Below the pieces are notes generated by a model. It saw only the letters and a list, made by a program, of their open reading frames with translations. It had not been told where the DNA came from and made no database searches. Of a stretch of 64,000 bases of DNA, positions 213 through 62,255 are shown in pieces. A program made the position numbers and the translations under genes. Source of the DNA: a virus (lineage: Duplodnaviria > Heunggongvirae > Uroviricota > Caudoviricetes); IMG/VR virus record IMGVR_UViG_3300024268_000012; one strand, 5' to 3'. Position 1 is the first letter of the stretch, and every line of letters begins with the position of its first letter.

Positions 213-270
213 ACTCTTCGCTCAACCTTTATTACATATATATTATAGCAAAAATTTTTACAAAAGTCAA
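213..270 (-). promoter_or_regulatory. Conserved phage promoter, minus-strand copy (TTGACT, 17 nt, TATAAT plus ATATATGTAA..GGTTGAG leader)
   Basis: The reverse complement reads TTGACTTTTGTAAAAATTTTTGCTATAATATATATGTAATAAAGGTTGAGCG. It is divergent from the FolD promoter. Confidence 0.6.
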
Positions 271-292
271 CTGGTTCGGTCTAGTTTTCGAT

Positions 293-320
293 TGACTTTT
301 CAAAAAAAATATGATACAAT
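293..320 (+). promoter_or_regulatory. Sigma70-like promoter for the folD operon (TTGACT, 17 nt, TACAAT)
   Basis: TTGACTTTTCAAAAAAAATATGATACAAT, followed by RBS AAAGGAG and the ATG at 347. Confidence 0.55.
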
Positions 321-346
321 AAAAGAAAAAGGAGCTAATTATTGAT

Positions 347-1180
347 ATGACCCCCAAGATTATTGATGGCAAAGCAATTGCGGCAAGAGTTGAACAAGAG
401 TGTAAACACACTATCGAAGCATTCAACCTCCAGCCTAAACTTGTTGTAATTACTACCGACGAAGCTGACGCTGCCTCTAAAGTATACATGCGGAATAAGC
501 ATCGTGCAGCTGAACGTGTCGGTATCCTATATGAAGAAATTATTCTTAATAAATATGCGGACATGACAATTATGCTATCTACTATTCGTCAGCTTAACGC
601 TGATCCTACGGTACATGGCATTATCGTACAGCTGCCATTACCAGCTCGTTTCGATGTGCCGACTATTCAAGCTGAAATTGATCCTGATAAAGACGTTGAT
701 GGGTTCCATCCCGACTCAGCATTTGACCCTTGTACGCCCGATGCTGTGATGCATATGCTTCTGGATGACGAAAAAATGACTCTTGACGGAAAACACGCCG
801 TTGTCATTGGCCGTTCCAATATCGTTGGAAAACCTCTCGCTCGTCTCCTTCTCCAAGAGAATGCGACTGTTTCCGTCTGTCATTCTCATACTGATTCAAT
901 TTTACTTGAGCAGCTTTGCAAGAGCGCTGATTACGTGTTCTGCGCCGCAGGCGTCCCGGGGCTCGTGAGACCCGAAATGTTGGCGTACGGCACAGTGCTC
1001 GTCGACATTTCTATCAATAGAGATATTGAAGGAAAGTTGTGCGGCGATGCCCATCCGGATTGTTATCCACTATGTTCTGCATATACTCCCGTTCCTGGCG
1101 GTGTTGGACCACTTACCGTATCCCGTCTCATGTGGCACACCGTTACCTCTGCACTAATGGCAAGAAAGGATGAAACTTAA
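347..1180 (+). CDS. folD: Bifunctional 5,10-methylene-tetrahydrofolate dehydrogenase / methenyl-THF cyclohydrolase
   Basis: 277 aa. FolD hallmarks include the GKxAVVIGRSNIVGKP Rossmann motif and the C-terminal PVPGGVGPLT motif. RBS AAAGGAG precedes the start. Confidence 0.85.
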   Translation: MTPKIIDGKAIAARVEQECKHTIEAFNLQPKLVVITTDEADAASKVYMRNKHRAAERVGILYEEIILNKYADMTIMLSTIRQLNADPTVHGIIVQLPLPARFDVPTIQAEIDPDKDVDGFHPDSAFDPCTPDAVMHMLLDDEKMTLDGKHAVVIGRSNIVGKPLARLLLQENATVSVCHSHTDSILLEQLCKSADYVFCAAGVPGLVRPEMLAYGTVLVDISINRDIEGKLCGDAHPDCYPLCSAYTPVPGGVGPLTVSRLMWHTVTSALMARKDET

Positions 1181-2871
1181 TGGCAACCACTCGTACTGAA
1201 ACAGATATTAAACTGTATACAAACGAAGAGTTGCAAGATATTCAAGATAATTCACATTCTGGTTCAGCAACAGATTCAAAAGGTAATATTCAAGCAGTTC
1301 TTTCTGCGATTATTACCTACACTAAAGCTGCGGCTGAAGCTAATCGTAATTATGTAGATATTTTGTGGTCTTCTATTAAAACAGGTAATTATACCGATAA
1401 AATCCTTGGTTGGATTGAAATGAAACCCGAAAACTCATTGGATGAACACAAATATGGTATTGCAGACACCCGCTGGGCTGTCGATATTGGTGGTCGTATT
1501 ACTGAAAGCGGATGTAGATGGATTTTTGTGTATAACCGCGACTCTGAAGAACCTTGCGGAATTCGTATTTCTTGGTGGGAAGAAAATGAAGATGAGACTG
1601 ATCCAATTGAAGAAGCTTGGACCAACAATCCTTACATCATTCTTCCTAAGAATAAATATGCGTTTCCCACTGCTTCTGAAGTAAATACTATTATTGTACA
1701 ACCAAATGCAATGCAAGTTAATAAGGACTTTATTAACAATATTTTTAGCACAATCAATTATCATATTCAAAATGCTGCAAAAAATAGTAATAACAATGTT
1801 CGAATTCCTTGGGAGACATTTGGTAATTCTGCGGAAGTGCAAAAAATGTTTGTTGTTACATCAAGAGATATAACAATAGTAGAATCAGAAAGTCTATCTG
1901 CGCTCGGTGGTTGTTTTAGCTATGGAGAACGCTCTGATGGTCATTATCCAAGAGCAACAAATCGTGCATTTACCGTTGATGACTTTGATCCACTGGAGAT
2001 GGGCTTCTTTAATGATGCTACCTATTTGGAAGATAATTATACTGCCTTTGCACCTGCAACCAGTTTTACATTGTATCAAATTTTAACAGAAATTTTAGGA
2101 TATGGTGTAAGCTATTCTGCTAGTGTTGATCTTCAGAATGGTCAAGCTTTTTGTATGGGTCTGTTAATCACTTGGGATAAAGAAAATTCCTATGCAACAA
2201 ATACAAGCAATGCTAATTATCTTGCAAATGAAATTTTTGCTGATGAATCTCAGCAATATAGAGATTCTTTAACTTCAGTACTATCTTGGCCTGATGGTAC
2301 TGTACCAACTTTGGAACATTATATTGCAGCAAATAAAAAGAATAATACCTCTTGGCTAAAAACTTTTGTTGATTTAACAGTTAGTAAAATGAATACTGCT
2401 TTTGCTAAAGGAGATCGTGCAATTCATATTCTATGGTCAGAAGTCAGTTCTTCTTATGCCGATGAAGTAAAACGAGCTTGGCAAAATGGTTCATGTGAAT
2501 ATGACGGTTATATTGAAGCAGCTGTACCAAGAGGAAGAGATCTTGGAGTTGGAACTCAAACTTCTGTGGCTAGTGCTTTTAATCAAATTATGGACGCAGA
2601 ACATTATTCTGCTGGTTCTACCAATCCTCCAACTTATGCTTATGGATATATCCGCTATAAAAAAGATGGTGACACCAGTGGTGGAGGTAGTGCTAATTCT
2701 ACAGCCATTGAAGATATTACTCACCCTGATTCCATTGGCTTAGCTATTACCCTGTATGGATATGTAGCAAGTTCTCCACAATCTGGTAATACTGCTGATG
2801 CTCAAACTGCTGATGCTATTCGTGATATTCAGCGGATTTGGTTAGCAAAAGAGGCCCCTAAAGCAAAGTAA
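1180..2871 (+). CDS. Large hypothetical protein (563 aa), translationally coupled to folD through a TAATG overlap
   Basis: Long ORF rich in N/S/T/Y with no motifs I recognise. Confidence 0.6.
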   Translation: MATTRTETDIKLYTNEELQDIQDNSHSGSATDSKGNIQAVLSAIITYTKAAAEANRNYVDILWSSIKTGNYTDKILGWIEMKPENSLDEHKYGIADTRWAVDIGGRITESGCRWIFVYNRDSEEPCGIRISWWEENEDETDPIEEAWTNNPYIILPKNKYAFPTASEVNTIIVQPNAMQVNKDFINNIFSTINYHIQNAAKNSNNNVRIPWETFGNSAEVQKMFVVTSRDITIVESESLSALGGCFSYGERSDGHYPRATNRAFTVDDFDPLEMGFFNDATYLEDNYTAFAPATSFTLYQILTEILGYGVSYSASVDLQNGQAFCMGLLITWDKENSYATNTSNANYLANEIFADESQQYRDSLTSVLSWPDGTVPTLEHYIAANKKNNTSWLKTFVDLTVSKMNTAFAKGDRAIHILWSEVSSSYADEVKRAWQNGSCEYDGYIEAAVPRGRDLGVGTQTSVASAFNQIMDAEHYSAGSTNPPTYAYGYIRYKKDGDTSGGGSANSTAIEDITHPDSIGLAITLYGYVASSPQSGNTADAQTADAIRDIQRIWLAKEAPKAK

Positions 2872-2883
2872 GGAGGATCTTAA

Positions 2884-60811: not shown

Positions 60812-60812
60812 T

Positions 60813-61961
60813 ATGTATCCTGAAGCTCTTATTATTGAACCTATGAAAATTAACAAAATTCCAGAGGGGAAGGAACATATGTTTCCTTCCCTCTGCGAAA
60901 GCGGAGAGTATTTCGCCCAGCTAAAGAAAGATGGTTACTGGTATATGTATGAAAAGACTGAAAATCATGCCTACCTTTTTAGTCGTACAACCAGTGCTGT
61001 TACTGGTACTCTTGCCGAGAAGGGTGCTAATGTACCTCATATTATGGAGGTTTTAAATCATCTTCCTGCGGGCACTATTTTGATTGGAGAAATTTATTAT
61101 CCCGGCAAGAGAAGTAAAGATGTAACTCCTATCATGGGCAGTTTACCTGAAAAAGCTATTGAACGTCAGAACGGTGAATATGGTTATTTACATTACTATA
61201 TCCATGATATGATTCGATACAAGGGAAAGGATCTGACTTCTTGTGGTGCAGGAATTCGTTACGATCTTCTCAAGAGAGTGTTCGATCTTCATTTACTGGG
61301 TAATTATACCATTGGTGATGATCATTTTATTGAACTTGCTGAACGAATTGATGAAAATATTCAAGAGTTTGTTGCTGACGCTCTTGAGCGAGGAGAAGAA
61401 GGAGCTGTCCTCAAAAAGAAAACCGCTCCATACACTCCAGGAAAACGACCCGCATGGGATACAATAAAAATTAAGAAAACTGATACTTGTGATGCTATTT
61501 GTATTGGTTTCTGTGCTCCAACCATTGAATATACTGGTAAAGAAATTGAAACTTGGCCGTATTGGTGCGCGTATATGGGTGAAAATGGTACAGGTGAAGA
61601 GGGAACAGATCGTACTGAATGGGTGCGCATGCCGCTCGACACTTATTATGAGCAGTCTAAACAAAATCCTGAGCTGTGGACTCCTGTAACTAAAGCGTAT
61701 TATTATGGTTGGGTTACTTCTATGCGCGTTGGTGCATATGACGATAATGGTAAAGTTATTGAAATTGGTACTGTATCTTCTGGCATGACAGAAGAGCTTG
61801 AAGCAGATGCTGCGGCTCGTCCATGGATGTACCTTGGAAAAGTTGTTAAACTTGCAGGAATGGAAAAAGATCGAACTGCAAAAACTCTTCGACATTTCTA
61901 TTTTAAAGGGTTTCATACAGATAAAGACCCTAGGGATTGTTTAATTAAAGAAATTTTTTGA
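60813..61961 (+). CDS. ATP-dependent DNA ligase
   Basis: RBS AAGGAGAA. The QLKKDGYW motif is the adenylation motif I (KxDG). The protein is about 382 aa. Confidence 0.6.
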   Translation: MYPEALIIEPMKINKIPEGKEHMFPSLCESGEYFAQLKKDGYWYMYEKTENHAYLFSRTTSAVTGTLAEKGANVPHIMEVLNHLPAGTILIGEIYYPGKRSKDVTPIMGSLPEKAIERQNGEYGYLHYYIHDMIRYKGKDLTSCGAGIRYDLLKRVFDLHLLGNYTIGDDHFIELAERIDENIQEFVADALERGEEGAVLKKKTAPYTPGKRPAWDTIKIKKTDTCDAICIGFCAPTIEYTGKEIETWPYWCAYMGENGTGEEGTDRTEWVRMPLDTYYEQSKQNPELWTPVTKAYYYGWVTSMRVGAYDDNGKVIEIGTVSSGMTEELEADAAARPWMYLGKVVKLAGMEKDRTAKTLRHFYFKGFHTDKDPRDCLIKEIF

Positions 61962-62005
61962 CTTTTCAAAAAATTTTTAGTATAATATATATGTAAGATG
62001 AAGAA
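61958..62005 (+). promoter_or_regulatory. Conserved promoter cassette copy
   Basis: TTGACTTTTCAAAAAATTTTTAGTATAATATATATGTAAGATGAAGAAAGG. Confidence 0.6.
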
Positions 62006-62019
62006 AGGAAAAAATCACT

Positions 62020-62217
62020 GTGACTAAAAAACAGCTGAAACAGCTTGCTAAGAAGTTGGCAGATTATGAGTTCATTATTCAGACCTCAAATGACCCCTAC
62101 AAGGTCAACGATGCTAAAGATCGTATTGCCCAGCTCACTGAATCTTCTGACCTCGAGATTGAAGATATGGTAAAACTCGACGACATGATTCAAGCAATGC
62201 TCAGTGAAAAAATTTGA
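62020..62217 (+). CDS. Hypothetical small protein (65 aa)
   Basis: Follows the promoter. The ORF track assigns a GTG start. Confidence 0.4.
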   Translation: MTKKQLKQLAKKLADYEFIIQTSNDPYKVNDAKDRIAQLTESSDLEIEDMVKLDDMIQAMLSEKI

Positions 62218-62255
62218 CTTTTTTCAAAAAAAATTGTATAATATATACAGTTAAT
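62214..62255 (+). promoter_or_regulatory. Promoter cassette copy with a divergent leader
   Basis: TTGACTTTTTTCAAAAAAAATTGTATAATATATACAG. Confidence 0.55.

Follow-up and report, generated by a model that had tools for sequence, protein, structure and literature searches.

Thirty-one promoter-leader cassettes of probable host sigma-A type in a 64-kb stretch of a large phage that appears to recode TAG

The stretch of phage DNA analysed here (i.e., 64,000 nucleotides of IMG/VR record IMGVR_UViG_3300024268_000012, referred to as the window) is a 64-kb piece of the genome of a large uncultivated gut/rumen phage, has a GC content of ~43% and carries nearly all genes on the plus strand. It carries 31 copies of a promoter-leader cassette in which TTGA, a 17-bp A/T spacer, TGnTATAAT, ATATAT, GTAAGG and a purine-rich Shine-Dalgarno leader follow each other. 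With a probability of roughly 80%, we take these cassettes to be very strong host sigma-A/sigma-70 promoters that are equipped with an escape-friendly leader and serve an early/middle region of the genome. Judged from sequence comparison, this is a known design (i.e., repeated and conserved host-type phage promoter-leader units) in an undescribed clade of large TAG-recoding gut and rumen phages.

Copies were sought by fuzzy search, by regular expression and with a 44-position position weight matrix (PWM) that was built from the copies and covers –36 to +8. This yielded 27 strong copies (45–64 bits) and four weaker variants (23–36 bits, with –35 elements at 292, 31870, 57940 and 62214), 30 of them on the plus strand and one on the minus strand (its –35 at 270, reading leftward), and the best PWM score in 20 shuffled versions of the window was 8 bits. 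A preliminary description of this DNA had counted about 30 near-identical copies and proposed a PWM scan of the genome; run on the window, such a scan confirmed that count (31 copies above an 8-bit shuffle ceiling). The 29-mer consensus from the same description matched eight window sites at no more than three mismatches, against zero expected.

Per-position counts were taken over 30 copies. TTGA, AAAA at –23 to –20, T–15 and the TA.AAT of the –10 box were invariant (30/30), G–14 and an exact TATAAT each occurred in 28/30, and the ATATAT discriminator and the G+1-TAAGG that follows it were conserved at 80–97%. The spacer was 17 bp long in every copy and consisted almost only of A/T from –30 to –16, so that the 17-nt spacer and the extended –10 box noted earlier both held, while the "perfect" –35 box did not: only TTGA was fixed, and positions 5 and 6 were T, A or C (e.g., TTGATT, TTGAAA or TTGACT), giving 4–5 of 6 matches to TTGACA. 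Within the spacer no conserved dyad symmetry was detected across the 30 copies, an A-tract followed by T being the only fixed feature. Downstream of GTAAGG, a C-free and purine-rich tract extended to about +16, and the first 16 transcribed bases read GTAAGGTTGAGAGAGG, again rich in purines and without C.

All copies were situated in short gaps or at the 3′ ends of open reading frames (ORFs), and 31/31 preceded the genes they serve and pointed in the same direction as these. In a start-codon table of 29 plus-strand copies (copy 62214 was left out), 20 had a leader of 13–38 nt up to a start codon that was preceded by a Shine-Dalgarno sequence, and among the remaining copies several led into tRNAs or tRNA clusters and some into longer non-coding leaders. 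The units between cassettes comprised 0–12 ORFs and/or up to 10 tRNAs, with a median of ~3 ORFs. The cassettes had been described as insulated single-gene cassettes, which fits the 7/29 units with a single ORF and the 8/31 copies with a terminator directly upstream, but not the remainder. Moreover, in five copies the last letters of the –35 TTGA belong to the TGA stop codon of the upstream ORF, so that no insulation exists there, i.e., at 3684–3738 (stop of ORF 2884–3687), 10061–10115 (ORF 8373–10064), 26650–26704 (ORF 25910–26653), 29635–29689 (ORF 29213–29638) and 61958–62012 (the DNA-ligase ORF 60789–61961). A further cassette (48192–48246) directly follows the TAA of the upstream ORF and heads a 12-ORF unit that includes an SPFH protein and formate-THF ligase (FTHFS).

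In six cassettes, a hairpin ended on, or at most 2 nt from, the TTG of the –35 box, with TTGATTTTT as the U-tract. The corresponding hairpins, all on the plus strand, were located at 5999–6035 (cassette 6033–6087, PWM 62), 11342–11372 (cassette 11374–11428), 18639–18665 (cassette 18667–18721, a single-ORF unit of 101 aa), 31845–31872 (cassette 31870–31924), 40507–40534 (cassette 40534–40588) and 46991–47023 (cassette 47025–47079). The first of these was the most stable (–27.1 kcal/mol, z-score –6.7), ended on TTG and had the –35/spacer sequence TTGATTTTTTT as its U-tract, and the stem at 31845–31872 overlapped the –35 box of a weaker variant (PWM 35.6), taking in its TTG. The six hairpins had folding energies of –18 to –27 kcal/mol with z-scores of –4.5 to –6.7 and were followed by TTGATTTTT or GACTTTT; with a G+C-rich stem-loop and a direct T-run, they are putative intrinsic terminators. 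Separate predicted terminators with their own T-run were found just upstream of two further cassettes, i.e., at 35124–35157 (13 nt before cassette 35170–35224) and 54687–54706 (30 nt before the gyrB promoter cassette, 54737–54791). The fusion of terminator and –35 box that had been reported for at least ten copies is therefore present, but in six copies, with two more adjacent. Among 371 distinct copies from the wider family, 17% had an upstream hairpin, compared to 9% of random positions, and this rate rose to 21% where a T-run followed TTGA. In the window, the hairpin was always located upstream of the cassette, and hairpin sequences were not conserved. On these predictions, terminator-cassette fusion is a recurrent minority design.

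The single minus-strand copy (216–270, PWM 47; –35 at 270–267) heads an operon that leaves the window, and in the sister strain L139, in which position 9655 corresponds to window position 1, three minus-strand genes follow it as the sole minus-strand operon at that end. As described before, this copy diverges from the folD promoter, a weaker TTGACT-17-TACAAT variant at 292–346 (PWM 34.5; –35 elements at 270 and 292) with the start codon 20 nt past its predicted +1. Two copies carry a TTGAAAA variant (8318–8372, ahead of a 563-aa ORF, and 35565–35619), both detected by PWM and included in the start-codon table. Cassette 19098–19152 precedes a single 94-aa ORF, cassette 19460–19514 a 36-aa ORF unit, and cassette 42588–42642 a 9-ORF unit with an RNA ligase gene, and the cassette at 37828–37882 has a 163-nt leader to an 823-aa protein with a major-vault-protein (MVP) shoulder domain. 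The remaining weak variants are TTGACA-17-TAGAAT-ATATAT upstream of gyrA (57940–57994, PWM 30.8) and TTGACTTTTTTCAAAAAAAATTG-TATAAT-ATATAC (62214–62268, PWM 23.5), the latter without TG and with a different leader.

Several cassettes are associated with RNA genes. Cassette 14927–14981 drives a group of tRNA-like genes (14992–15650), cassette 19656–19710 has a tRNA-Glu downstream, and cassette 20314–20368, with a long structured leader, precedes an ORF followed by five tRNAs. Cassette 22670–22724 begins 14 nt behind a tRNA-Ser and is followed by a group-I-intron-like RNA (22811–23015) and 10 tRNAs, cassette 27251–27305 begins 13 nt behind a tRNA-Phe, and cassette 33132–33186 has a ~500-nt non-coding leader before a tRNA-Val and the SAM synthetase gene. 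A suppressor tRNA with a CUA anticodon starts 33 nt past the predicted +1 of cassette 26650.

Leader hairpins near 14020 (cassette 13983–14037) and 14965 (an 8-bp stem in the leader of cassette 14927) had been noted previously and were recovered with folding energies of –11.2 and –14.1 kcal/mol, respectively. Further examples were found at 3719, 10096, 19691 and 20349, i.e., in the leaders of cassettes 3684, 10061 (where the hairpin hides GAGAGAG), 19656 (where it is 5′-terminal) and 20314. In these hairpins, the conserved GAGAG tract is base-paired to a complementary stretch, and they occur where the true start codon or tRNA lies further off. An Rfam search of the leaders at gathering threshold returned tRNAs only, and a permissive search added the sub-threshold group-I-intron-like match and weak matches.

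Comparison with relatives revealed strong conservation of the cassettes. Between the window and L139 (92.7% identical over 11.2 kb), only 4 of 312 cassette positions differed (1.3%), whereas divergence reached 7.4% in the rest of the alignment and 8.4% in intergenic DNA outside the cassettes (binomial p = 6e-7). In more distant relatives, the cassettes were ~90–98% identical, against 67–79% for coding DNA. The gyrB cassette was kept in the relatives L133, L137 and L135, with a different upstream gene and terminator sequence in each, and L005 retained cassettes ahead of the 94-aa ORF (at the same position as cassette 19098) and of a 104-aa ORF. Judged by these comparisons, the cassettes are under strong purifying selection.

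More widely, exact matches to a 26-mer and a 17-mer of the cassette recovered >130 IMG/VR loci, and the PWM yielded 356 copies distributed over 108 IMG/VR loci, with many further ones in contigs of gut and rumen metagenome-assembled genomes (MAGs). A family consensus of TTGA, a T/A run, AAAAA, TwTGnTATAAT, ATATAT, R, TAAG and purines was common to ~20 genomes, with a locus GC of 0.30–0.49 and contigs of up to 402 kb. The predicted +1 was a purine in 354/354 family copies (G in the window), T–17 was present in 324/354, T (+2), A (+3) and T (+7) were conserved family-wide, and hardly any C occurred between +1 and +16, which also held for positions that the PWM does not cover. The purines at +9 to +16 shifted with GC content, from GAGAGAGG in the window to AAAGAAAG in AT-richer relatives. 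In 824 kb of relatives' loci that were chosen independently of the motif by anchoring on the replication helicase, i.e., in the replication module (Pol III alpha, NrdD/G, dUTPase), all 60 hits were co-directional with genes (60:0). Cassette density was 0.073 per kb in these loci versus 0.47 per kb in the window (about sixfold higher), so that cassettes are enriched in the plastic, ORFan-rich region with its ORFan, tRNA and auxiliary genes.

The same sequences bear on the host. Among 185,579 species genomes (one each), a 20-mer of the cassette was found in 66 stretches, nearly all of them MAG contigs from animal or human gut, mostly labelled as Lachnospiraceae, Clostridia, Eubacteriales, Oscillospiraceae, Ruminococcus or Bacilli. 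Since many of these contigs carry multiple cassettes, they appear to be binned phage. Mimicry of a host promoter, or a prophage origin, was considered and rejected, the 20-mer being nearly confined to such multi-cassette, phage-like contigs; matches in isolate genomes (Halanaerobacter and a Ruminococcus sp.) were single and either weak or due to chance. Other pointers are the TRTG-type extended –10 box, the strong GGAGG-type Shine-Dalgarno sequences, the SPbeta-like YorF/YorH proteins and an anaerobic ribonucleotide reductase. Together, bin labels, promoter type, Shine-Dalgarno sequence and gene content suggest a host among the Bacillota (Clostridia).

For the reading favoured here, we infer recognition by sigma-A, the initiation point, the strength of the promoters and their early/middle timing from the cassette sequences and their surroundings. 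Sigma region 4 would bind TTGA, region 3 the extended –10 box (T–17, T–15 and G–14, i.e., the Gram-positive "TRTG" –16 motif) and region 2 the perfect TATAAT, and bending and melting would be favoured by the A-tract in the 17-bp A/T spacer and by the ATATAT discriminator. Initiation would then take place at the invariant purine 7 nt past the –10 box, and the purine-rich, C-free start would ease escape from a near-consensus, tight-binding promoter. The leader purines would double as a Shine-Dalgarno sequence when an ORF starts within 13–38 nt, and would be folded into a 5′ hairpin when the target is further away. Since GTAAG (+1 to +5) is kept even where tRNAs follow, it probably has a transcriptional role, and we read the conserved leader as serving two jobs, i.e., as an escape-friendly transcribed sequence and as a Shine-Dalgarno sequence. 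The purines at +9 to +16, in contrast, would track the need for a Shine-Dalgarno sequence, as they vary with GC content and are concealed in a hairpin where translation does not use them. In this manner, the cassettes would split the tRNA, auxiliary-metabolism and replication region into ~30 short units of 1–12 genes each, about a quarter of them directly behind a predicted terminator, and in six the T-run of the –35/spacer would be the terminator's U-tract.

A comparable promoter is N25 of phage T5, which binds polymerase tightly, is limited at the escape step and escapes faster owing to its native purine-rich and A/T-rich transcribed sequence (PMC12464699). Its sequence was confirmed in T5 (100% over 70 nt; AY543070, 63048–63117, annotated promoter). 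The +1 to +20 region of N25, ATAAATTTGAGAGAGGAGTT, had up to 16/20 matches to cassette leaders (the maximum being reached with cassette 27251), with a mean of 10.6 versus 5.4 for random 20-mers. Like the early promoters of T5, the cassettes are numerous strong promoters within one phage, probably read by host polymerase, with conservation beyond the hexamers, and they share with the N25 type an A/T-rich spacer with an A-tract and a T-tract, a perfect TATAAT and a purine-rich leader with a Shine-Dalgarno sequence. N25, however, lacks the canonical TGn extended –10 box and the ATATAT discriminator, shares 22–37 of 55 positions overall and scores only –1.2 bits on the cassette PWM. Because of this score of about –1 bit, the likeness would be one of function, or convergence, rather than homology. 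Moreover, the cassette phage is unrelated to T5 and most likely infects a Gram-positive anaerobe, and the cassettes are far more uniform and occur throughout a clade.

Several points weigh against host sigma-A promoters as the full account. The spacer A-tract, ATATAT and GTAAG exceed the known needs of sigma-A, and ~80 kb of genome beyond the examined stretch could hold a phage sigma factor or RNA polymerase. The host inference leans on MAG labels that are mostly Bacillota/Clostridia but noisy, and assignment to an early class is plausible from gene content, the one source on which the timing draws.

A second promoter class of the same genome adds to the first of these points, as it does without the A-tract, ATATAT and GTAAG. 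Nineteen copies of this class (referred to as class I) were found at 1–7150 of L139, i.e., 2.5–9.6 kb left of window position 1. They consist of aaaaa-GGGG-TTGACAA, a variable 17-bp spacer (47% GC) and TGTGnTATAAT-AgAtAATGTCaAaAGG, a GGGGCTT/AAGCCCC hairpin spans the –35 box of many of them, and most precede a small ORF, one of which encodes an AbrB/MazE-fold protein. Scored with the cassette PWM, the first 6.9 kb of L139 stayed below 20 bits throughout, and the class-I stretch held a lone weak 26-bit hit at 6982. As class-I spacers are variable and 47% GC, host sigma-A would need no A/T-only spacer, so that the cassette-specific positions would hold class-specific information; this suggests itself as the best argument for the idea, put forward in the preliminary description, that an additional factor reads the spacer. 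The T5 N25 promoter weighs against such a factor, having a similar A4T5 spacer tract without needing one. The arrangement suggests that class I is an immediate-early set and the cassettes an early/middle set, and the class-I region is reminiscent of an immediate-early "host-takeover" module.

Class I and the first cassette of L139 are separated by a ~750-bp non-coding stretch (6600–7330) that is dense in CCGATCGG-type palindromes and contains three TTGACAAAT-N-TATGATATAAT promoters, none of which is followed by an ORF. This stretch might encode small RNAs, be an origin, or be a region akin to the injection stop of T5.

An alternative that we regard as possible, if clearly less probable, is that a phage factor, either an RpoD/SigA-like sigma factor or a DNA-binding regulator, has the cassette as its cognate promoter, with the host enzyme insufficient or secondary. 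Such a factor would read the A-tract spacer, ATATAT and GTAAG, and would create a semi-orthogonal circuit, self-amplifying or switchable, that is distinct from class I. RpoD-like sigma genes are known from some jumbo phages (PMC7824862), and many cassette-bearing relatives of the window indeed encode a SigA/RpoD-like sigma factor of 290–316 aa with regions 1.2, 2, 3 and 4. These proteins are 42–54% identical to Bacillus subtilis SigA over regions 2–4, with intact contact motifs for the –10, extended –10 and –35 elements, and their genes lie in the tRNA/cassette region (L043 at 7562–8512; L022 at 4326–5240 on the minus strand; L063, L050, L035 and L070; and L264–L343). Cassettes were dense in 40 of the best 80 IMG/VR sigma loci, and in 20 of the 35 testable ones a cassette was located 33–116 nt before the sigma gene, a layout that would permit positive feedback. 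The presence of two internally uniform sigma-A-like promoter classes in one genome, and the conservation of non-hexamer positions across genomes of very different GC, would also fit such a factor.

Nevertheless, tblastn with B. subtilis SigA and the relatives' phage sigma factors did not find a sigma gene in ~95 kb comprising the window, its flanks and the syntenic spot (at ~14–15 kb of the window; L043 is syntenic with window 8.3–14 kb). The cassette consensus was alike in sigma-bearing and sigma-lacking genomes, and the spacer lacked the conserved dyad or repeat that is typical of operators. A spacer palindrome, TCAAAAAATTTTGA, was considered as an operator and rejected, its C–25 being present in 11/30 copies only and just the A-tract and T being fixed. 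In addition, T5 N25 uses a similar spacer and leader with host polymerase alone. If the cassette drives the relatives' own sigma gene, the host enzyme must read it before any phage sigma factor exists; the layout would thus support host sigma-A competence, while allowing the phage sigma factor to amplify expression later on.

A bolder version, which we hold just as tentatively and do not expect to be correct, has the cassette as the shared "address" of a phage-controlled circuit, separate from class I, that times a regulon including the amber-suppressor tRNA, with the repeats perhaps acting as recombination joints. Such a phage-read address would time the switch of the infected cell to a TAG-recoded genetic code, and the cassettes would gain in interest should a phage factor or sigma factor turn out to read their class-specific positions.

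A further proposal, that the cassettes are also portable recombination modules whose 50-bp repeats are exchanged so that small genes are shuffled together with promoter and terminator, seems doubtful. It is modelled on the PeSLs (promoter-early stem-loop cassettes) of T4-type phages, in which ~50 repeated composite units per genome combine a sigma-70 early promoter with a stem-loop terminator/attenuator that may overlap the –35 box, an upstream stop codon on the 5′ side, and a Shine-Dalgarno sequence and start codon on the 3′ side (Arbiol 2010, PMC2839356; Comeau 2014, PMC4122927). PeSLs are concentrated in plastic regions of small unknown ORFs, where they act as recombination joints (PMC2839356; PMC4122927). 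The cassettes share the repeated sigma-70-type promoter, the adjacent or overlapping stem-loop, the upstream stop codon, the downstream Shine-Dalgarno sequence and start codon, and the regional bias, i.e., the ~6-fold higher density in the ORFan/tRNA/auxiliary region than in the replication module of relatives (for the architecture, cf. PMC2839356). Near-identical 50-bp repeats are also long enough for phage recombination, and gene content does vary beside some cassettes (e.g., FTHFS, upstream of the gyrB cassette, is absent in L133).

On the other hand, the stem-loop of PeSLs is near-constant (GGGG...CCCC) and can lie between or over the hexamers, whereas only 6–8 of the 31 cassettes have a hairpin, of non-conserved sequence, and host and phage lineage differ as well. 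Recombination between copies, the activity that defines PeSLs, was not supported by the indels examined: those of L133 (the FTHFS block, a 209-aa ORF and a 119-aa ORF) were not bounded by two cassettes, and neither was the indel region of L140 (6.2–7.1 kb), the sample of indels being small. Cassette positions are largely orthologous among relatives, and promoter function alone would account for the purifying selection. Shuffling of the PeSL type was set aside as unsupported, strain-level contigs being collinear and the L133 indels not cassette-bounded. Class-I promoters (GGGGCTTGACAAAAGCCCC) look more PeSL-like than the cassettes.

In the lambda PR′ promoter, a pause element occupies the same part of the initially transcribed region as +2 to +7 of the cassette. 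It is very unlikely that TAAGGT/TAAGAT at these positions constitutes a –10-like sigma pause element (pausing at +16/+17), with the spacer as the dock of a Q-like antiterminator and late read-through of terminators (for sigma-dependent pausing, cf. the review PMC4005639). The conserved T-A at +2/+3 and T at +7, the PR′-like position and the terminators that adjoin a quarter of the copies would agree with this, but the match to TATAAT is only 3–4/6, a Q-like gene was not identified, thirty loading sites are without precedent, and escape and Shine-Dalgarno functions explain the same bases. That the repeats are some other DNA signal (replication iterons, packaging sites or remnants of small mobile elements), as dispersed near-identical 50-bp repeats with a loose CTCTCT...GAGAGAG inverted symmetry around some copies might suggest, is extremely improbable given the strict co-orientation with genes (60:0 in relatives), the fixed start-codon distance, the exact sigma-70 geometry, the family-wide absence of the flanking symmetry, and the lack of target-site duplications and origin-like clustering. 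Pairing of the leader GAGAGAGG with an upstream CTCTCT/CTTCCA, either as silencing of read-through or as ends resembling a miniature inverted-repeat transposable element, was seen in the window and rejected as it is absent from the family consensus.

The phenomenon itself comes as no surprise: repeated, conserved host-type promoters with standard leaders are already classic in T5, T4-type phages (PeSL) and SPO1. Stewart is said to have described the early promoters of the host-takeover region of Bacillus phage SPO1 in 1998, and "–16 TRTG" promoters of Gram-positive bacteria were reportedly treated by Voskuil and Chambliss in the same year. Like the promoters of SPO1, the cassettes appear to be strong sigma-A-type promoters, each with a strong Shine-Dalgarno sequence and located before small early genes, and with the TRTG promoters of the Bacillota they share T–17, T–15 and G–14. 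SPO1 promoters, however, vary more and occur in the terminal redundancy only. The class-I region fits the SPO1 picture better, and the cassettes serve tRNA, metabolic and replication genes. In the literature searched, the motif strings of the cassette were not found, and a survey of stop-codon-recoded gut phages did not discuss promoters.

As a compact signature, the cassette is of practical use: its PWM recovers hundreds of sites, marks an undescribed clade of 100–400 kb gut/rumen phages and helps to delimit the transcription units of that clade. It is probably also a very strong promoter/ribosome-binding-site part for Bacillota. The cassette-driven suppressor tRNA is a pointer to expression timing in TAG-recoding phages, and two uniform sigma-A-like promoter classes together with the relatives' sigma genes make the clade tractable for decoding promoter positions outside the hexamers.

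The source phage has no close counterpart in GenBank, as megablast against 50,697 phage records yielded tRNA matches only, and no cultured close relative was found, GyrA identity being at most ~41% among the matches listed. Exact-protein look-ups map the window onto contigs of 168–174 kb from many ENA and JGI metagenomes. Its products include FolD, FTHFS, SAM synthetase, a CitMHS transporter, GyrB/GyrA, RNA ligase, DNA ligase, an M28-like peptidase, an AAA ATPase and the MVP shoulder-domain protein, and the replication genes of the phage group (SPbeta-like YorF/YorH, DnaB, RecJ and Pol III alpha) are not those of a T4-type myovirus. A formate/nitrite-transporter gene on the minus strand (10673–11266) has a non-cassette promoter (TTGACA-17-TAAAAT, 11332–11304 on the minus strand), and, taken together with FolD, FTHFS and the CitMHS transporter, it suggests that the phage rewires one-carbon/formate metabolism. 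Perfect 12/12 TTGACA-17-TATAAT matches of non-cassette type were also seen at 52145–52173 (before the ORF at 52211) and at 55102–55130 (within gyrB).

The genome appears to be TAG-recoded. Stop codons of the 69 window ORFs of at least 80 aa were TAA in 42, TGA in 26 and TAG in 1, and a GIY-YIG endonuclease frame (62686–63645) contained five in-frame TAG codons, one of them within a YVG*A motif; a public gene call gives this frame as one 319-aa product. ARAGORN identified 33 tRNA genes at 16.8–33.7 kb of the window, one of which, at 26718–26808 (91 nt, with a long variable arm and the ARAGORN label "Pyl"), has the CUA (amber-suppressor) anticodon. A CUA tRNA is likewise present in the relatives L005, L022 and L035.

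Three long tRNA-like genes, not called by ARAGORN, matched the Rfam tRNA model (14992–15117, 15124–15241 and 15536–15650; 115–126 nt, 41–47 bits) and are the first genes behind cassette 14927. They may be tRNAs that contain insertions or introns, or that have further elements attached. The group-I-intron-like RNA at 22811–23015 (RF00028, 47.4 bits versus a gathering threshold of 50, E = 2e-9) begins ~100 nt 3′ of cassette 22670, in a place without a called ORF or tRNA. A weak Y-RNA-like (YrlA) match of 30.6 bits was seen in the tRNA region (30112–30230), and a DUF2828/DUF7788 protein (35934–37448) is the neighbour of the 823-aa protein with MVP shoulder and repeat domains (38026–40497); the two proteins and the YrlA-like match form an unusual set for a phage.

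Finally, independent assemblies break alike. One contig (L146) starts at window position 14927, exactly on the –35 box of a cassette, and other breaks cluster at ~60.3–60.7 kb, where L142 and L143 start at window positions 60317 and 60662, respectively, and L145 ends near 60.4 kb. These shared breaks may reflect the physical end of the genome, a terminal repeat, or assembly breaks caused by repeats.

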